A stretch of 64,000 nt of DNA, taken from assembly GCA_009711765.1 (NCBI GenBank), contig VEND01000100.1:1561-65560 (forward strand), read 5' to 3'. Each line of letters starts with the position of its first letter. Position 1 is the first letter of the stretch. Under the pieces are notes generated by a model that was given only the letters and a program-made list of their open reading frames with translations, ran no database searches and was not told the origin of the DNA. This stretch comes from Bacillota bacterium (GTDB taxonomy: Bacteria > Bacillota > Clostridia > Tissierellales > MES13). The position numbers were made by a program, and so were the translations under genes. Below, piece after piece: positions 29,609 to 36,981 of this stretch.

Positions 29609-30283
29609 TTAATATATTTTTATATATTTTTTATTTTCCATACTTATATCTTTTTGTTTTCCCCTTACAATTATTCTTTGTTTTGAAGTATTAAGTGGAT
29701 GACATGCTGTTAGAGTAATAGCATTATATCCTATAGATTCAGTTACTGACCAATCATTTTTCTCTACGATAAATACTTTTTCTACTTCATATGAAAAGTT
29801 TGTATTATTTATTTTTAAAATTATTTTATCACCTTTTTTAAGCTTATCTACGTTTCTAAACCAAGCACCATAGGTAGTTCTATGTCCTGCTATACATACG
29901 TTTCCTTTCTCTTTCCATGGTAAAGGACTCTTCTCATAAAGACCTGGTCCTTTTTTTAAGTCATTAACTGAAGTACCAGAAATAATTGCTGCCTTAACAT
30001 CTATCTTAGGAATATAAATTTTCATTAAACCATCTTTATAATCTTTCCTTGAAAGCTTAAATTCTACATCTATTTTTTCTTCTACTTTTTTTATCGATAT
30101 ATTATTTCTTAACTCTCTTTTTATTACCTTTTTATCTTTTTTCTCATCTATAACCTCTTTACTTAATAAATCATTTTGAATAATCTTCCACTTATTTATA
30201 TTATATAGAGAAATTAATATTAAAATGATCCCTAATATTATAAGTATTGAACCTTTTTTAATTTTTAAAAAATTATTTTTCAT
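29609..30283 (-). CDS. sortase-family transpeptidase (membrane-anchored)
   Basis: 224 aa with an N-terminal TM, catalytic His (IAGHRTTYG), Cys motif TLTACHP and conserved Arg (RIIVRG). Confidence 0.9.
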   Translation of the reverse strand: MKNNFLKIKKGSILIILGIILILISLYNINKWKIIQNDLLSKEVIDEKKDKKVIKRELRNNISIKKVEEKIDVEFKLSRKDYKDGLMKIYIPKIDVKAAIISGTSVNDLKKGPGLYEKSPLPWKEKGNVCIAGHRTTYGAWFRNVDKLKKGDKIILKINNTNFSYEVEKVFIVEKNDWSVTESIGYNAITLTACHPLNTSKQRIIVRGKQKDISMENKKYIKIY

Positions 30284-30337
30284 ATGCTCACCTTCTATAA
30301 GTTAAAAGGAAGTTGATAATCAACTTCCCTTTACTAA

Positions 30338-33247
30338 CTATCTATTTTTTCTATTTAATTTAATACCAAATCCTAATAACAATGTTCCTAATCCACTTAA
30401 TATAAAATCAGATGGTATCAAACCCCCTGTGTTAGGTAAATTAGGTATCTCTTTTTTAGGTTCGATTATTATCTCTTCCTCATTTTCTGGTTCAGGATCA
30501 TTTGGTATATCAGGTATTTCATCGATTGGTTCAATAATTACTTCTTCTTCATAAATATTTGTTATTGTAATATTTATTGTCTCATCTTCTATGATTGTAA
30601 AATCTTTTTTAGTATATTCTACTTCATCTGCTCCATTATTATTAGTTTCTACAATATAATAATCACCTATCTTTAATTTAATTGGTTCTGTTGTACCTTC
30701 TGTTATTTCAATTATTTCTACTTTATTATCTTCTTCATCATATATTGTTACCTCATATTCTTTACCTTCTGTATCACCTTCTACTAATTTTGTTACGGTT
30801 AAATATCCTGGTTTTCTTTCTTTATTGTCTTCATCGTCTTTATCATCATTTTTGTCTTCATCTTTACCATCTTCTTTTTGCTCTTCATATAAATTTTTAA
30901 TTGTTAAATTTACTGTTTTATCTTCTTCTATAGTAAATTCTTTGTTACTATAACTTATACTATCTGCTTTATTACTTTCAGTCTCTTCTATACTATAGTT
31001 TCCCAGTTCTAATTCTATTGTCTTACTTTCTCCTTTTACTAAATTTATTACCTCTACTATATTCTCTTCTTCATCATACACTGTAACTTCAAATTCACCT
31101 TCTGGGGCTTTTCCTTCTACTATCTTTGTTACTGTTAAATACCCTGGTTTTGGCTCTTCTTCTTCATATTTATTCGTTACTGTTACATCTATAGTTTCTC
31201 CTTCAACTACCATTATATCTTGATTACTATAACTTATACTATCTGCTTCATTGCTATCAGTCTCTTCTATACTATAGCTTCCTGGTTCTAACTCTACTTT
31301 TTTTGTTTCCCCTTTTACTAATTCTATTACCTCTACTATATTTTCCTCTTCATCATACACTGTTACCTTAAATATTCCTTCAGAAGCTTCCCCTTCTACT
31401 ATCTTTGTTACTGTTAAATATCCTGGTTTTTGCTCTTCTTCTTCATATTTATTTGTTACTGTTACATCTATAGTTTCTCCTTCAACTACCATTATATCTT
31501 GATTACTATAGCTTATACTATCTGCTTTATTACTATCAGTCTCTTCTATGCTATAGCTTCCTGGTTCTAACTCTACTTTCTTTGTTTCCCCTTTTACTAA
31601 TTCTATTACCTCTACTATATTCTCTTCTTCATCATAGATTGTAACTTTAAATGTTCCTTCCGGAGCTTCCCCTTCTACTATCTTTGTTACTGTTAAATAT
31701 CCTGGTATAGGCTCTTCTTCTTCATATTTATTTGTTACTGTTACATCTATAGTTTCTCCTTCAACTACCATTATATCTTGATTGCTATAGCTTATACTAT
31801 CTGCTTTATTACTATCAGTCTCTTCTATGCTATAGCTTCCTGGTTCTAACTCTACTTTTTTTGTTTCCCCTTTTACTAATTCTATTACCTCTACTATATT
31901 TTCCTCTTCATCATACACTGTAACCTTAAATATTCCTTCAGGAGCTTCCCCTTCTACTATCTTTATTACTGTTAAATATCCTGGCTTTGGCTCTTCTTTT
32001 TCATATTTATTTGTTACTGTTACATCTATAGTTTCTCCTTCAACTACCATTATATCTTGATTACTATAGCTTATACTATCTGCTTTATTACTTTCAGTCT
32101 CTTCTATACTATAGTTTCCCGGTTCTAATTCTATTGTCTTACTTTCTCCTTTTACTAAATTTATTACCTCTACTATATTCTCTTCTTCATCATAGATTGT
32201 TACCTTAAATGTTCCTTCCGGAGCTTCCCCTTCTACTATCTTTGTTACTGTTAAATATCCTGGTTTTGGCTCTTCTTTTTCATATTTATTTGTTACTGTT
32301 ACATCTATAGTTTCTCCTTCAACTACCATTATATCTTGATTACTATAGCTTATACTATCTGCTTTATTACTTTCAGTCTCTTCTATACTATAGTTTCCCG
32401 GTTCTAATTCTATTGTCTTACTTTCTCCTTTTACTAAATTTATTACCTCTACTATATTCTCTTCTTCATCATAGATTGTTACCTTAAATGTTCCTTCCGG
32501 AGCTTCCCCTTCTACTATCTTTGTTACTGTTAAATACCCTGGTTTTGGCTCTTCTTCTTCATATTTATTTGTTACTGTTACATCTATAGTTTCTCCTTCA
32601 ACTACCATTATATCTTGGTTGCTATAGCTTATACTATCTGCTTTATTACTTTCAGTCTCTTCTATACTATAACTTCCTGGTTCTAACTCTATTGTTTTTG
32701 TTTCCCCTTTTACTATATTTATTACCTCTACTATATTATCTTCTTCATCATACACTGTAATTTCAAATTCACCTTCTGGGGCTTTTCCTTCTACTAGTTT
32801 TGTTAATTCTAAATACCCTAGATTTTGAAAATAAAATGTTACATGGCTTATATCAGGTATTTTTTCATTCTTTTCAGGAGAATGTAAACTTATATTGTTA
32901 TCACTATATTCTGCTGGTTCATAGGTATAAAGATTCCCACCATCGCCACCTTTTACAAATACATGTTTAACTAATAAATTACTATCCCAAGATTTTATAT
33001 ATTTTCCTTCGTAAACTTCTATTGTTACTGTTTTTTCATCCTCCGTATAAGTCTGACTTGTCAATAAGTTATCAGCTTCTATTTTGCATGAATCTAAATC
33101 TGTTACTTCAGAAGATAAGTCCTTATCATTACCTGGATAATATTTTACATTATCATAGGTTGCGTATAAATCCTCTGGTAAAGTAATTACCATAATCAAA
33201 GCTATTATTGCAATGAATACTAATGCCCTCTTTTTGTAATCTTTCAT
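30338..33247 (-). CDS. LPXTG-anchored surface adhesin with eight tandem Cna-B/SpaA-like domains
   Basis: The C-terminal sorting signal is LPNTGG, a hydrophobic stretch, then RKNR. The signal peptide starts at MKDYKKRALVFIAIIALIM. Start moved to ATG 33247 (AAAGGAGAT RBS) rather than the ORF-track 33319. Eight GYLTVTK...VTVTNKY units are present. Confidence 0.9.
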   Translation of the reverse strand: MKDYKKRALVFIAIIALIMVITLPEDLYATYDNVKYYPGNDKDLSSEVTDLDSCKIEADNLLTSQTYTEDEKTVTIEVYEGKYIKSWDSNLLVKHVFVKGGDGGNLYTYEPAEYSDNNISLHSPEKNEKIPDISHVTFYFQNLGYLELTKLVEGKAPEGEFEITVYDEEDNIVEVINIVKGETKTIELEPGSYSIEETESNKADSISYSNQDIMVVEGETIDVTVTNKYEEEEPKPGYLTVTKIVEGEAPEGTFKVTIYDEEENIVEVINLVKGESKTIELEPGNYSIEETESNKADSISYSNQDIMVVEGETIDVTVTNKYEKEEPKPGYLTVTKIVEGEAPEGTFKVTIYDEEENIVEVINLVKGESKTIELEPGNYSIEETESNKADSISYSNQDIMVVEGETIDVTVTNKYEKEEPKPGYLTVIKIVEGEAPEGIFKVTVYDEEENIVEVIELVKGETKKVELEPGSYSIEETDSNKADSISYSNQDIMVVEGETIDVTVTNKYEEEEPIPGYLTVTKIVEGEAPEGTFKVTIYDEEENIVEVIELVKGETKKVELEPGSYSIEETDSNKADSISYSNQDIMVVEGETIDVTVTNKYEEEEQKPGYLTVTKIVEGEASEGIFKVTVYDEEENIVEVIELVKGETKKVELEPGSYSIEETDSNEADSISYSNQDIMVVEGETIDVTVTNKYEEEEPKPGYLTVTKIVEGKAPEGEFEVTVYDEEENIVEVINLVKGESKTIELELGNYSIEETESNKADSISYSNKEFTIEEDKTVNLTIKNLYEEQKEDGKDEDKNDDKDDEDNKERKPGYLTVTKLVEGDTEGKEYEVTIYDEEDNKVEIIEITEGTTEPIKLKIGDYYIVETNNNGADEVEYTKKDFTIIEDETINITITNIYEEEVIIEPIDEIPDIPNDPEPENEEEIIIEPKKEIPNLPNTGGLIPSDFILSGLGTLLLGFGIKLNRKNR
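30545..32818 (-). repeat. tandem coding repeats: about 279-bp (93-aa) unit, copies 1-6 full length and near-identical, copy 7 shares about 66 aa then diverges, copy 8 divergent
   Basis: Repeat boundaries recur about every 279 nt (e.g. CTTCTACTATCTTTGTTACTGTTAAATA near 31115, 31395, 31675, 31955, 32235, 32515). Protein copies 2 and 3 are identical. Confidence 0.9.
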
Positions 33248-33384
33248 TTTACTATCTCCTTTCTTTTTAAATTTATACTTTACGTAATATCCTTTCTTTA
33301 AATATACCCACTTTATCATGCTAAACTCTTTTATATTTCATATTATGAAAATAATTTAATAAATATTATATATGTATAAAATTC

Positions 33385-33417
33385 AAAAAAATAAACTGAA
33401 CTATAAAGTCCAGTTTA
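33385..33417 (-). terminator. terminator between the transglutaminase-like gene and the adhesin gene
   Basis: Minus strand has an AAACTGGAC-TTTATA-GTTCAGTTT hairpin followed by ATTTTTTT. Confidence 0.65.
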
Positions 33418-33452
33418 TTAAAATCCATATTCAATTATATGTTTGCTTTTAA

Positions 33453-34283
33453 TTAATATTCTGATTGTTTTATATGATTATCATCAAATTCTTCAGTATC
33501 GAAATAATTACTATTAGCAGTATCTGCAAAAGTTGTATCTAATTTAATCCAAGTATTCTTTTCTGATATGTATATTTCATTCCAAGCATGTAATCCACTA
33601 TAATCTTCTGTAATACCCTTACCTTCTATAACCTTAGTTTGAAGTTTAATAGCTCTTCCTAAAGCAGCCACTAACGTAGCATAGTCATAACATACACCTT
33701 TTTTTACTTTAATTGTATTTAATGCTCCATAACTTTGATTATAGTTGTCATTTAAATGTTTATTATATTTTTTATTATCATATTCAATATTCTTTATAAC
33801 CCATTCATATATAGCCTTTGCCTTTTCATAATCTGTTTCTTTATTAGCAGTTATTTTCTTAGCAAGCTTTATTATCTCTTTATTATTACTTTCAATATGT
33901 TTATTAGAAACAAGAAACTTATTTACCTTTTTAGTATTAATAACCTCTATTTCAGGCCCATATTTATATTTTCTACCCTCTATATTTACTAAAATATAAA
34001 TTTTATAACTACCTTTTCCCTCTGTTAAATATATTTTTTTACTAAACTTTCCTTTATTAATATCTACATCAAACCATTTAGTATAATCATCTTTTTTGAC
34101 TAATATTTTTATTTTACTATTGGTAGTTTTTCCAGATAACTTTACAACACCTTCTACCTTATCATCTAACTTTTCTAAAGATACATTATTTTTCGTTATG
34201 AAATTTTTCCCCTGTGCAAAGGTTGCTTGTCCAATATTTAATATCAAAACTATAATTATTAGTAAAATAAAATTTTTTCTCAA
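33453..34283 (-). CDS. secreted transglutaminase-like (papain-fold Cys-His-Asp) protein
   Basis: 276 aa with a signal peptide. Core motifs are KKGVCYDYATL (Cys), GLHAWNEIY (His) and WIKLDTT (Asp). TTG start with AAAGGAGGT 7 nt upstream. Confidence 0.8.
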   Translation of the reverse strand: MRKNFILLIIIVLILNIGQATFAQGKNFITKNNVSLEKLDDKVEGVVKLSGKTTNSKIKILVKKDDYTKWFDVDINKGKFSKKIYLTEGKGSYKIYILVNIEGRKYKYGPEIEVINTKKVNKFLVSNKHIESNNKEIIKLAKKITANKETDYEKAKAIYEWVIKNIEYDNKKYNKHLNDNYNQSYGALNTIKVKKGVCYDYATLVAALGRAIKLQTKVIEGKGITEDYSGLHAWNEIYISEKNTWIKLDTTFADTANSNYFDTEEFDDNHIKQSEY

Positions 34284-34295
34284 TTAAAAAACCTC

Positions 34296-34388
34296 CTTTT
34301 TCGGTGACCCGACTGTCATAGTGAATAAACACCTTAGACTCGTAGCTTTGCGTCCCTATATTTCTATAGGTTTGCCTTTATCGAAAGG
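34296..34388 (-). promoter_or_regulatory. cyclic-di-GMP-I riboswitch aptamer, copy 2a (proximal; abuts the Shine-Dalgarno sequence)
   Basis: Minus strand reads AAAGGCAAACCTATA-GAAA-TATAGGGACGCAAAGCTACGAGTCTAAG...GTCGGGTCACCGAAAAAGGAGGT, so the aptamer 3' end runs directly into the RBS. Confidence 0.85.
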
Positions 34389-34409
34389 GGTTGTCCCTTT
34401 CTGCCTTAA

Positions 34410-34440
34410 ATAAAAAACCTATCTAGATTACCCAGATAGG
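34410..34440 (-). terminator. intrinsic terminator between the two tandem aptamers
   Basis: Minus strand has a CCTATCTGGGTAATCTAGATAGG hairpin followed by TTTTTTATTT. Confidence 0.75.
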
Positions 34441-34455
34441 TCGATATACAAATAT

Positions 34456-34546
34456 CTATCTTCGGTAACCCAGCCGTCATAATAAAGTATCTTAGACCTG
34501 TGGTTTTGCGTCCTTATTTTTCAATAAGTTTGCTCTTATCGCTTTC
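34456..34546 (-). promoter_or_regulatory. cyclic-di-GMP-I riboswitch aptamer, copy 2b (distal)
   Basis: Minus strand reads GAGCAAACTTATT-GAAA-AATAAGGACGCAAAACCACAGGTCTAAG...GGCTGGGTTACCGAAG. Confidence 0.8.
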
Positions 34547-34563
34547 TATATTTAGTTACTTTA

Positions 34564-34592
34564 ATTATAACAAAGCTTAGATATATATTCAA
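34564..34592 (-). promoter_or_regulatory. sigmaA-type promoter of the tandem-riboswitch transcript
   Basis: Minus strand reads TTGAAT (34587-34592), a 17-nt spacer, then TATAAT (34564-34569). Confidence 0.6.
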
Positions 34593-34689
34593 TTAATTAA
34601 ATGTATATCTATTACATATATATCCTATTTCTCATCTCTTAATCTTTTTTTCAAAAAGTTAAAACTATAAGCAGATATATGCTTATAGT

Positions 34690-36768
34690 TTAAATTTCAA
34701 ACTTATTAGTAGTGCCCTGTAAATCCTGGGATAGATTTTTTAACTCTTCTACATAGGAACTAACTTCTTCCATACTAGCTAATTGTTCCTCTGCTGATGC
34801 AGAAACTTCCTGTGTTGATGCTGATGTTTCCTCTGAAGAAGCTGAGATATTTTCTATAATTGAAACTATTTCATTTTTCTTATTCGTCATATTATTAGTA
34901 TTATCTTTAACTTCATTTACTTTTAAGGTTAACTTGTCTATACTTTGTGATATTTTTTTAAATATATCATTTGTATTTTTAACTTCTTCATCTTGATTTT
35001 TTACAATTTCTTTAACCTTTTCAATAGCATCAACTGAAACCTTTGCTTCACTTTGTATTCCCTCGATTATACCTTTAATCTCCCCTACTGAGGATGACGA
35101 TTCCTCTGCAAGCTTTCTTATCTCATCAGCGACAACTGCAAAACCTTTACCCTTTTCTCCTGCCCTAGCTGCTTCTATTGCTGCATTTAGTGCAAGTAAA
35201 TTAGTTTGTTCTGCTATTTCTCCTATTGTTTGTGATATTTTACCTATCTTTTCTGTTCTTTTATCAAGTTCTTTAATTATACTATTTACTTTATCGGTAG
35301 CTTCTAAATTTTTCTTTGATTTTAAAGTTAATGATTTTACAATTTCTATACCCTTATTACTCATATTATTAGTATCCTTAGCAAAACCATCCATATCTAA
35401 AGCTGAGTTAGAAACCTTTTCTATATTACCTGCTAATTCTCCTATTTCATTAGCACCCTGTTCTGTTATTTTAGCCTGTTCACTGGATACATTAGCAATT
35501 TCTTCAATAGTAGATGCTACTTCATTTGTAGCATTAGTCGTTTCGTTTGTAATATCAGTTAATGATTTCGAAGAATCTAACACTGTAAAAGATGCTTTTT
35601 TTACATCTTTTATAAGTGTCTTTATATTCTTTAACATAGCATTAAAACTATTACCCACATCACCAAATTCATCCTTAGTTTTTATATTAACCTCATTAGT
35701 TAAATCTCCATTAGAAGCTTTATTAAAGGCCTCCTTTAAACTATTTAATGGTTTAGTAATAGTCTTAGATAAAAATATTGCAACGAATCCTACTATTACC
35801 ATTAAACCTAATAGTATAAAGATGTTTTTATTTCTTACATCATTTACAAACCCGTAGGCATCACTTTTCCTTTGAACAGTTATAACTGCCCAATCATTAG
35901 ATTTTCCTGGAAGTTTAATAGACTTATATGCACTTACAACTTCTTTTCCATTTACATTTTCATATTCTAAAAATCCTGACTTTCCATTTAAAACTTTTTC
36001 TGTTAATCCCTTTAATGCTTTGGAAACTTCAATTTTTTCTGTCTTTATTTTATGGTTTCCATTAGAGTCTTTGATAATATTTCCATTATCATCTTTCACT
36101 ATAGTCTTTTTTGTAAGTGTTTTATAATTATATTGCTCACTAACTTTCCTTTTATCATGATGGGCTATAACTACACCTTGGCTATCTACAATATATGTAT
36201 AAGTTCCATCATTTAGCTTCATTTTATCTACCATCTGCTGTAGGTAATCTAATTTTATATCTGCTCCCATCACACCTGTCATATCATTATACTTATCATA
36301 TGTTGGTATGCATATAGCTGTAACAGGAATATTACTAGATAATGAAAAGTATGACTTTCCAACAAAGGCATTTTTCTCATTCATAGTCTTTTTAAACCAC
36401 CATCTATTTGATCTATCTCCTAAAGAACCACTAGACCTTGCAGTTTGCATACCATCTGTCCCTTGTATATACAAAAGATCAAAATATGGATTTCTCTTAA
36501 TAGTTTTCTTTAAAACCTTTTCCTGTTTATAAGGCTCATAGCTTTTAATATCACTATTATTAGCTATTTGTTCTGTTACTTTAAAAGCTGTTGTTACAAA
36601 GGATGATACATTTTCTGATAAACTATTTGCAATATTTAAATGATTAGCTTCTATTCTATCTCTATAATTCTTAGATATAAAATAATTACTAAAAATATTT
36701 GATATAACAAAAGGTATTAATACTATTAAAACCATAATAATTATAAGTTTATTTTTTATACTTTTCAT
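34690..36768 (-). CDS. methyl-accepting chemotaxis protein (double-Cache-type sensor, HAMP)
   Basis: 692 aa. Signalling hairpin is [39 protein letters not shown], and the HAMP domain includes [18 protein letters not shown]. Confidence 0.95.
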
Positions 36769-36786
36769 AATCTCCTCCTTTATATT

Positions 36787-36808
36787 AAAAAAACGCCTAT
36801 TTCAGGCG
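36787..36808 (-). terminator. riboswitch expression-platform terminator, just upstream of the MCP RBS
   Basis: Minus strand has a CGCCT-GAAAT-AGGCG hairpin followed by T7. The SD AAGGAGGAG starts about 8 nt later. Confidence 0.75.
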
Positions 36809-36809
36809 C

Positions 36810-36886
36810 AAAAGTGCAACCTGGCAGTCATAGTTTCCCTTAGACCCATAGCTTTGCGACCCTACCTTTCAATAGGTGTGCTAAAA
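36810..36886 (-). promoter_or_regulatory. cyclic-di-GMP-I riboswitch aptamer, copy 3, in the 5' leader of the MCP gene
   Basis: Minus strand reads TAGCACACCTATT-GAAA-GGTAGGGTCGCAAAGCTATGGGTCTAAGGGAAACTATGACTGCCAGGTTGCAC. Confidence 0.8.
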
Positions 36887-36930
36887 ATTTATTTGAATAT
36901 TTATTTATATTATATGTAAGTTATACAATA

Positions 36931-36960
36931 TTCTACATTTAACTACATTTTCCTACATTT
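36931..36960 (-). repeat. three helically phased 10-bp direct repeats at or above the -35 position
   Basis: Plus strand reads ttCTACATTT aaCTACATTT tcCTACATTT, which is AAATGTAG x3 on the minus strand. They lie just upstream of a TATAAT (36909-36914) that has only a poor -35 (TGTAGA). Confidence 0.5.
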
Positions 36961-36981
36961 ATTAATTAATTTTCTTGTAAA

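Follow-up and report, generated by a model that had tools for sequence, protein, structure and literature searches.

Riboswitches of class I for the second messenger cyclic dimeric guanosine monophosphate (hereafter c-di-GMP; riboswitch class c-di-GMP-I) occur in tandem more often than those of any other class, with 347 doublets and 12 triplets reported, and these tandems have been listed as pseudo-cooperative (Sherlock et al., 2022, PMC9481103). The same review defines “bi-mechanism” tandems from the SAM-II/SAM-V case, in which a terminator comes first and a ribosome-binding site second (both SAM-II/SAM-V and SAM-II/SAM-II tandems of this kind go back to Poiata et al., 2009), proposes a steeper response and the silencing of transcripts already made as their benefit, and states that tandems have not been comprehensively checked for mixed platforms (PMC9481103). 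Tandem c-di-GMP-I riboswitches in front of COG1305 (yebA) transglutaminase-like genes have been found to be enriched in Bacillota (p = 1.08e-34; 94% doublets and 6% triplets; PMC12452182, 2025). Here we describe a c-di-GMP-I tandem in a stretch of 64,000 nucleotides (nt), hereafter the window, from a Bacillota bacterium (GCA_009711765.1, contig VEND01000100.1, positions 1,561 to 65,560 of the forward strand), where it forms the leader of a minus-strand gene encoding a secreted transglutaminase-like protein. With moderate confidence, we regard as the best explanation of this leader a bi-mechanism tandem that is OFF at both levels, i.e., at transcription through the distal aptamer (aptamer 1) and at translation through the proximal one (aptamer 2). 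The features are listed in Table 1, with positions counted from the first nucleotide of the window.

Scanned in full with Rfam at gathering thresholds, the window yielded four aptamers of the c-di-GMP-I clan, all on the minus strand, among which the tandem pair. The sequence-only reading of this stretch, made by a model from the letters alone, had placed two complete GEMM-I aptamers at 34296-34388 and 34456-34546 and had named a search with RF01051 beforehand as a test that could refute it; the matches lie within a few bases of these positions, cover the full length of the model so that neither aptamer is truncated, and score far above the gathering score of 35. In the Rfam alignments both show the two hairpins of the class, with a GAAA tetraloop, the ACGCAAA junction (GACGCAAA) and a receptor-type P1b with GUCUAAG...UAUGAC. 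One 5' untranslated region thus holds two complete riboswitches, predicted to bind the same ligand, each followed by a platform of its own, and a terminator separates the two aptamers.

This terminator, which the sequence-only reading had also recognized, is a stable GC-containing hairpin located between aptamer 1 and the gene, and the 3' end of its stem enters a run of six U (34417-34412) followed by A and then by UUU (34410-34408). Terminator-like sites are enriched in this region (4 in 4 kb versus 0.7 expected in the consensus scan), and the chemoreceptor gene upstream has a terminator of its own at 34691-34662. The promoter that had been noted as TTGAAT-17-TATAAT at 34564-34592 is present as a promoter-like site and is in addition TG-extended, and the start of transcription is predicted near 34557; promoter-like matches occur at chance density in such AT-rich DNA (25 found versus 24.7 expected). 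At the other end of the leader, aptamer 2 finishes with ...CACCGAA at 34300 and is followed directly by AAAGGAGGU, eight further nucleotides and the TTG start codon at 34283; orthologues carry AAAGGGAGG or AAAGGGGG at the site of the Shine-Dalgarno (SD) sequence. The U run after the SD sequence (GGAGGUUUUUU) was considered as a hidden terminator closed by P1 and rejected, as the run is not conserved in orthologues.

Evidence for this division of labor is comparative. Relatives of the protein at 30-57% identity number 117 and come from Anaerosolibacter, Alkaliphilus, Acetivibrio, Geosporobacter, Pseudobacteroides and a large number of uncultured Clostridia, and orthologous loci taken from species-representative genomes and from metagenomes were scanned with a covariance model built from the four aptamers of the window (a sample of the orthologous leaders, checked with Rfam, scored 62-87 bits). 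A tandem stands directly upstream of a transglutaminase orthologue (45-57% identity) in 54 loci from many genera of Clostridia, which give 41 distinct leader sequences. All 41 have a terminator 3' of aptamer 1, versus two with a terminator-like hairpin 3' of aptamer 2, and both of these hairpins start more than 20 nt downstream, within the open reading frame. An SD sequence (GGG or GGAGG) starts at most 8 nt from the 3' end of aptamer 2 in 38 of the 41 leaders and at this distance from aptamer 1 in a single one; CC occurs at most 4 nt 5' of aptamer 2 in 40 leaders and in the same position relative to aptamer 1 in none. A TATAAT-like box lies at most 70 nt upstream of aptamer 1, mostly 13-36 nt away, in 38 of the 41. 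These counts argue that the order promoter, aptamer, terminator, aptamer, SD sequence is an old, conserved design and no local accident, and they lend comparative support to the earlier proposal of a transcriptional platform for aptamer 1 and a translational one for aptamer 2. They are also at odds with a cooperative tandem of the glycine type, where one platform is shared, since a full terminator with its U run stands between the aptamers in the window and in all 41 relatives.

Several leaders depart from this layout. In L001 (Anaerosolibacter) aptamer 2 has been lost and a scar has been kept (ACCC...UUACCGUAAAAGGGGG), whereas L003, L012, and L024 have the SD-linked proximal aptamer alone, with its junction to the SD sequence preserved; L031 has three units. 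Leaders of the Pseudobacteroides type (L008, 5215-5500; L009, 5721-5990; L025, 5702-5990; L103; L107) contain an insertion of ~190 nt in the distal loop of P1b of aptamer 2, and the two halves of the aptamer that flank it are intact (5' UUUCG...GGUCUA, 3' ACUAUGACGGCUGAGUAACCGAAAAAGGGGG). A distant subfamily of transglutaminase-like proteins (L028, L031, and L060/L076; ~32-36% identity, including Paenibacillus) carries two or three tandem c-di-GMP-I units in which the 5' arm of the terminator overlaps the 3' strand of the aptamer (AGCUACCGAAAGAUUAGCUUUUUU), an ON-type layout; a collagen-binding LPQTG protein is encoded downstream in L060.

The terminator of the window does not overlap aptamer 1 and, therefore, control by this aptamer needs an antiterminator. 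The sequence-only reading had pointed to AGATAGA, just 3' of the aptamer, as a mimic of the 3' arm of the terminator that could offer an alternative pairing. The mimicry is real (AGAUAG at 34461-34456 has the same letters as part of that arm), but the motif is only the 3' end of a longer strand, GGGUUACCGAAGAUAG, that begins inside aptamer 1, its portion at 34471-34464 being GGGUUACC, and this overlap couples the alternative pairing to ligand binding. The partner is CUAUCUGGGUAAUCU (34439-34425), i.e., the 5' arm and loop of the terminator, with which the strand forms six plus eight pairs across a small internal loop. The terminator tip, YGGUAAUCC in the family and GGUAAUC at 34432-34426 in the window, is unusually conserved for a loop and is complementary to GGGUUACCR, which forms the 3' strand of aptamer 1. 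In an anchored alignment of 20 leaders, 87.6% of the 209 cells of this pairing are standard pairs, versus 26-54% when the partner is slid by one to three columns. Pair 9-19, which borders the GG/CC core, occurs as AU (12 leaders), GC (four) and GU (two), and pair 6-22, opposite the A/G of UUACC/UUGCC, is GU, AU or GC with one non-pair; covariation or a paired percentage as high as observed arose in just 3-4 of 500 column shuffles. Over the 41 leaders the antiterminator duplex has a mean energy of -13.1 kcal/mol and a mean z of -2.4, and it beats 95% of the shuffles in 32 of them. For transcripts ending at the terminator loop, the minimum free energy (MFE) structure includes five or more of the antiterminator pairs in 17 of 21 leaders. 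An alternative pairing that excludes the terminator and uses a strand of the aptamer thus appears to be available in this family.

For the window transcript truncated at the terminator loop, the antiterminator fold (-22.4 kcal/mol) is favored over the one in which the aptamer is enforced (-21.2 kcal/mol), whereas in the full-length transcript the terminator (-33.5 kcal/mol) is favored over the enforced antiterminator (-27.8 kcal/mol). In these models the antiterminator would, hence, be transient and the decision kinetic. This arrangement matches that of Cd1, an OFF switch whose aptamer and terminator can be present at the same time, each in competition with an antiterminator formed from the strand that stabilizes the aptamer (PMC9262584), and by this analogy we infer that riboswitch 1 is OFF as well, with c-di-GMP leading to termination. 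The P1 helix of aptamer 1 covaries between its 5' flank and the bases that directly follow the aptamer (UGCAU/AUGCA, AACAU/AUGUU, AGUAU/AUACU, and ACUUUUG/CAAAAGU); through this helix the start of the spacer would also be under ligand control.

In riboswitch 2, P1 is formed by UUUCG (34386-34382) and CGAAA (34303-34299). Beyond a bulge of two A, the sequence AACCCC directly 5' of P1 (the anti-SD) pairs with GG(A)GGUU of the ribosome-binding site, and this extension is coaxial with P1. The ligand could, therefore, only stabilize the occlusion of the SD sequence, which makes riboswitch 2 a presumed translational OFF switch. Shuffle tests of the duplex between the anti-SD and the SD sequence were uninformative, as a C run and a G run survive shuffling, and the comparison of cognate with non-cognate duplexes between flank and tail was not significant (427 of 5000 permutations), the SD side being unable to covary, which weighs against the assignment; the anti-SD, therefore, rests on position-specific conservation and not on covariation. 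For the bound-like fold the computed energies lie at -23.0 to -24.6 kcal/mol, some 10 kcal/mol less favorable than the free MFE. Such a gap fits within the binding energy of a ligand held with the picomolar to nanomolar affinity of GEMM-I aptamers. In the unconstrained MFE structure of riboswitch 2, GAAAGGG (34401-34395), which mimics the 3' strand of P1 plus the SD sequence, pairs with CCCUUUC and so sequesters the anti-SD together with the 5' strand of P1, forming a candidate anti-anti-SD hairpin. The anti-SD of the window is paired with P=0.87, versus 0.50 in shuffles, and L083, the leader most closely related to that of the window, shares this local hairpin.

Roughly half of the leaders (L002, L004, L011, L016, L017, L008/L009/L025, and others) show another pairing, in which the 3' flank of aptamer 1 (e.g., GGUGUUUA) pairs with the 5' flank of aptamer 2 (e.g., UAAACCC, the anti-SD). 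In the MFE structures of these relatives' leaders the resulting bridging helix encloses the terminator and joins both riboswitches; the window and L083 have the local hairpin in its place.

The sequence-only reading was silent on whether the switches are ON or OFF, and the anatomy of both points to OFF. In the mechanism that we propose, the transcript would start from the promoter at 34592-34564. Without ligand, the strand at 34471-34456 would pair with 34439-34425 before the 3' arm of the terminator exists, and the polymerase would read through; with c-di-GMP bound, this strand would be held in aptamer 1 by P1b, the C92-type contact and P1, and the terminator with its U run would form and stop transcription. 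Riboswitch 2 would act on the full-length mRNA, where P1, stabilized by the ligand, would bury the SD sequence and block initiation at the TTG codon; without ligand the GAAAGGG/CCCUUUC hairpin would keep the anti-SD and the SD sequence would be free. Overall, c-di-GMP would repress the secreted transglutaminase-like enzyme twice, since new transcripts would be aborted and existing ones silenced, and the combined dose-response would be expected to be steeper.

A number of observations weigh against this double OFF mechanism. The covariation of the antiterminator is modest, with double changes at three pairs, and comes from sequences that share descent. The terminator of the window is ~5.7 kcal/mol more stable than the antiterminator and read-through without ligand would thus hang on kinetics that are hard to model. 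The anti-anti-SD hairpin is clear in the window, in L083 and in a few other leaders and is not family-wide, and over the family the anti-SD is paired with a mean P of 0.48 versus 0.35 in shuffles, which argues little for a general anti-anti-SD. In the unconstrained fold of the window the SD sequence pairs weakly with an A/U-rich stretch of the open reading frame, and thermodynamic prediction of its accessibility is unreliable here. Finally, Bc3-5, a characterized Bacillus tandem switch from another leader family, is reportedly an inducing (ON) switch with transcriptional platforms throughout, so that direction would not be a property of the class.

An alternative is that the same tandem is ON in both switches, c-di-GMP causing read-through and freeing the SD sequence, in which case enzyme and adhesins would be produced jointly when c-di-GMP is high. 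c-di-GMP usually induces functions in adhesion, characterized Bacillus class I tandem switches before adhesin-type genes are likewise said to be inducing, and the gene of the window adjoins genes for an LPNTG adhesin and a sortase. The ON-type overlap of terminator and aptamer in the distant subfamily (L028, L031, and L060) would fit this alternative as well. The main family, however, lacks this overlap, and there the terminator contributes its 5' arm and loop as the partner of the aptamer 3' strand, as in the OFF layout of Cd1; moreover, the anti-SD is coaxial with P1, so that the ligand would stabilize SD occlusion, a terminator lies between the gene and the adhesin, and the adhesin neighborhood is not conserved. 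We, therefore, consider control in the ON direction unlikely.

Two further alternatives turn on a single nucleotide. At Rfam model position 11, aptamer 2 carries the canonical G and aptamer 1 an A. We take this position to correspond to G20 of Vc2, which, like A47 and C92, contacts the ligand; on this tentative mapping the equivalents of G20, A47, and C92 are G, A, and C in aptamer 2, and aptamer 1 keeps those of A47 and C92 intact. The G20A change weakens c-di-GMP binding by Vc2 (53 nM versus picomolar) and makes this aptamer bispecific for 3',3'-cyclic GMP-AMP (cGAMP), and the natural aptamer Cbe 1-2 of Clostridium beijerinckii has been reported to be bispecific as well (PMC6140456). By analogy, the two aptamers of the window may well differ in affinity. 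They could also form a two-input gate, aptamer 1 sensing cGAMP or both dinucleotides and aptamer 2 c-di-GMP alone; A at position 11 recurs in the aptamer before the chemoreceptor gene of the window (36892-36812). Across the orthologues, however, the A/G state swaps between aptamer 1 and aptamer 2, and among the 41 tandem leaders GG is the commonest combination (24), next to GA (6), AA (5), and AG (4). A rule that tandems never have A in both aptamers held in 22 genome loci and was refuted by the five A/A tandems of the enlarged set. Because the variation is sporadic among orthologous aptamers, A at position 11 looks tolerated rather than designed, and no division of labor is conserved; this, together with the tentative mapping to G20, makes a two-input gate quite improbable to us.

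Affinities that differ are also what a band-pass would need, in which the switches have opposite signs, one OFF and one ON, and expression peaks at c-di-GMP concentrations in a middle band. The two directions have been derived independently and each is only moderately secure, which leaves room for such a combination. Yet both platforms, read independently, come out as OFF, and with an A/G state that flips among orthologues and G/G in 24 of 41 leaders a fixed asymmetry in affinity is not conserved, so that opposite signs seem to us very unlikely. Still less probable is regulation by riboswitch 1 alone, with aptamer 2 as a duplicated relic or as an element acting on mRNA stability or Rho access: translational control is, it is true, derived from proximity alone, and the leaders with one aptamer (L001 without aptamer 2, and L003, L012, and L024 with the proximal one) indicate that a single switch is viable, but aptamer 2 outscores aptamer 1, is of full length in 41 leaders and has a fixed junction with the SD sequence and CC(C) on its 5' side in 40 of 41, and the loci with a single proximal aptamer keep this junction, all of which speaks for aptamer 2 as a working platform by itself.

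Table 1. Features of the tandem leader and its surroundings in the window and, at the end, c-di-GMP-II aptamers in orthologous loci (positions within those loci).
Feature	Position	Strand	Basis and remarks
Promoter-like site	-35 TTGAAT 34592-34587; TG-extended -10 TGtTATAAT 34572-34564	-	Consensus scan, 10/12 matches; 17-nt spacer
Aptamer 1 (distal), c-di-GMP-I RF01051	34544-34461	-	Rfam, 80.7 bits, E 2.8e-14, model 1-87/87
Antiterminator 5' strand GGGUUACCGAAGAUAG	34471-34456	-	Aptamer 1 3' strand plus AGAUAG; pairs with 34439-34425 in MFE of truncated transcript
Intrinsic terminator hairpin GACCUAUCUGGGUAAUCUAGAUAGGUU	34442-34416	-	Consensus scan, 12 pairs then U run; -14.2 kcal/mol
Hairpin GAAAGGG-ACAA-CCCCUUUC	34401-34383	-	Unconstrained MFE of riboswitch 2; candidate anti-anti-SD
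Anti-SD AACCCC	34392-34387	-	Directly 5' of aptamer 2 P1; pairs with GG(A)GGUU of ribosome-binding site
Aptamer 2 (proximal), c-di-GMP-I RF01051	34386-34300	-	Rfam, 87.3 bits, E 6.6e-16, model 1-87/87
Ribosome-binding site	SD GGAGG 34296-34292; TTG start 34283-34281	-	Sequence; 8-nt spacer
Secreted transglutaminase-like protein	33453-34283	-	276 amino acids, TTG start; PF01841, E 3.2e-23
Terminator-like hairpin	33419-33390	-	Just past the stop codon of the gene
Surface protein	30338-33319	-	993 amino acids; signal peptide, ~nine SpaA/CnaB-like repeats, C-terminal LPNTG sorting signal
Dedicated sortase	29609-30283	-	After surface protein gene; best matches class E/D
Third c-di-GMP-I aptamer	36892-36812	-	59 bits; upstream of Cache/HAMP methyl-accepting chemotaxis protein gene (36768-34690)
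Fourth aptamer	27355-27280	-	RF03167 c-di-GMP-I-GGC best, 71 bits versus gathering score 59; upstream of second chemoreceptor gene (27116-25059)
c-di-GMP-II aptamers, L007	6863-6946, 7142-7224, 8772-8856		
c-di-GMP-II aptamer, L013	7175-7262		
c-di-GMP-II aptamer, L020	6989-7075		
c-di-GMP-II aptamer, L083	2070-2153		
c-di-GMP-II aptamer, L100	2062-2129		
c-di-GMP-II aptamer, L120	2058-2141		

The product of the regulated gene carries a signal peptide and has an Ig-like beta-sandwich in its N-terminal part and, in its C-terminal part, a transglutaminase/papain-like core, in which Cys198, His232, and Asp249 are invariant in the columns of the orthologue alignment. Its structure model (predicted local distance difference test, pLDDT, 91.8) matches 3ISR (a putative cysteine protease), 9CRN (S. 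pyogenes TglA), the animal transglutaminases TG2/TG3, pseudomurein endoisopeptidase and LapG (chain 4U65_E), and this fold search did not separate a protease from a cross-linking transglutaminase. Exact-sequence look-up gave no record of the protein, the nearest being a 264-amino-acid call of the same protein on a 2.4-kb Logan contig. Because of the terminator-like hairpin just after the gene, the unit controlled by the riboswitches is probably monocistronic. An operon of transglutaminase, adhesin and sortase was dropped, given this hairpin and given that the genes downstream vary in the orthologous loci (aconitase, histidine kinase, PdxS, SLH proteins, and others). The repeats of the surface protein encoded next to it are near-identical and 93 amino acids long each, visible as a 279-bp periodicity in the promoter-scan matches, and its true start is likely ATG 33247, behind AAAGGAGA.

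No c-di-GMP-II aptamer was found ahead of the adhesin gene of the window, even at E<=10, and no riboswitch is present there. Rfam searches of the orthologous loci did find c-di-GMP-II aptamers just downstream of the transglutaminase orthologue in six of them (L007, L013, L020, L083, L100, and L120), where they precede genes for a SipW-like signal peptidase and TasA/camelysin-family proteins (L013 and L020) or an SLH protein (L007). L023 and L024, which lie outside this class II scan, have the same types of SipW-like and TasA-family genes downstream. In the neighboring class II units the 5' arm of the terminator is the 3' strand of the aptamer's own P1, an ON-type layout, and beside a class I tandem read as OFF this suggests that adjacent genes appear to be under reciprocal control by c-di-GMP.

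Precedents for such a logic exist. Class I switches are OFF in Clostridioides difficile, where zmpI is controlled by a class I OFF switch and the adhesin substrates of its product by class II ON switches (PMC11477304), and LapG is a transglutaminase-like cysteine protease acting on LapA (PMC3032545). The parallel in reciprocal control with zmpI and with LapG/LapA is consistent with the OFF direction, as far as an analogy can be. In both PPEP-1/ZmpI with CD2831 (C. difficile) and LapG with LapA (Pseudomonas fluorescens), low c-di-GMP is the state in which a secreted or periplasmic protease is produced or active and strips off an adhesin that high c-di-GMP favors. The likeness is one of logic, however, as the enzyme of the window could be a cross-linking transglutaminase and its neighbors vary between genomes. 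Carrying the parallel further, one may speculate that the OFF/OFF tandem silences a secreted protease, isopeptidase or cross-linker of the transglutaminase fold at high c-di-GMP, when neighboring surface and matrix genes (in relatives, those for TasA/camelysin-like proteins with SipW-like peptidases and for SLH proteins; in the window, the sortase-anchored LPNTG adhesin, which lacks a class II aptamer) are turned ON through class II riboswitches, i.e., a Gram-positive counterpart of LapG/LapA and PPEP-1/CD2831 built of riboswitches, and that in part of the family both class I units are coupled by the helix between the aptamer 1 3' flank and the aptamer 2 anti-SD and act on one translational decision. 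Taken as a whole, this scenario is unlikely.

The two other aptamers of the window stand before chemoreceptor genes. A terminator hairpin (36809-36793, minus strand; GCGCCUGAAAUAGGCGU followed by a U run) lies within 3 nt of the third aptamer, whose 3' strand CCAGG can pair with the 5' arm CCUG of this terminator, which suggests another OFF switch. The fourth has RF03167 as its best model and, at its junction, the canonical ACGCAAA and not the GCGAA of the RF03167 consensus; a canonical binder whose P1b has been shortened is more probable than an aptamer of variant specificity.

The transketolase encoded in the window is 97% identical to that of an uncultured Bacillota metagenome-assembled genome (MAG), the next relatives, among which Sporosalibacterium, Senegalia, and Anaeromonas, being at 65-69%. 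In this MAG, whose contig (GCA_009711785.1; L081, 7489-7850) is the closest relative with ~91-95% nucleotide identity, a block of 7.3 kb (29655-36974) is lacking that carries the genes for the sortase and the LPNTG adhesin, the transglutaminase gene together with its tandem leader, and the greater part of the chemoreceptor gene. Since the block is absent from this close relative save for remnants of 127 and 233 nt, both from the chemoreceptor gene, it is an indel between close relatives, apparently through a deletion in the relative.

Much of what is described here has its place in the literature, which covers the type of arrangement, the frequency of c-di-GMP-I tandems and the association with the gene. 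The sequence-only reading had called the gene context different from precedent, which does not hold, as tandem c-di-GMP-I riboswitches before COG1305 genes have been tabulated (PMC12452182). Its idea of serial gates at transcription and translation fits the anatomy but was published before as the bi-mechanism class (PMC9481103). What we add is an explicit anatomy and its conservation, the assignment of the antiterminator and the anti-SD, and a predicted OFF/OFF direction; current understanding is not overturned. In addition, an uncharacterized family of secreted transglutaminase-like proteins is flagged as a recurrent target of c-di-GMP in Clostridia. Its orthologues are often found beside genes for matrix or surface proteins that are apparently regulated in the opposite direction, which suggests a role in surface release or remodeling when c-di-GMP falls.

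Compared with the tandems of PMC12452182, the leader described here agrees in riboswitch class, tandem arrangement and gene family, but these are known from a table entry alone, without the terminator-then-SD anatomy, an antiterminator, an anti-SD or a direction of control. Bc3-5 of Bacillus thuringiensis is likewise a natural tandem of complete c-di-GMP-I riboswitches, found to be more stringent and more digital than a single copy, but it consists of three units and belongs to another gene (cspABCDE mRNA; PMC4759541). Cd1 in the flgB leader of C. difficile (Sudarsan 2008; PMC9262584) is the closest likeness to riboswitch 1, which would share its transcriptional OFF control through a transient antiterminator in which the 3' strand of the aptamer joins the 5' arm of the terminator; Cd1, however, is a single riboswitch without a translational stage and controls a flagellar operon. 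Dual control of transcription and translation is found in Bc1 in a single-aptamer form. The bi-mechanism tandems of SAM-II resemble the tandem of the window in having two complete riboswitches for the same ligand in one leader and differ from it in ligand and aptamer class, c-di-GMP-I taking their place in the window. If the proposed mechanism holds, the family would thus offer a widely conserved natural case of a single gene that one second messenger controls at two levels in succession, each time through a copy of the same aptamer; it would lend itself to measuring how a kinetic gate (co-transcriptional) and a thermodynamic one (translational) act in combination, with the natural single-aptamer derivatives as controls.

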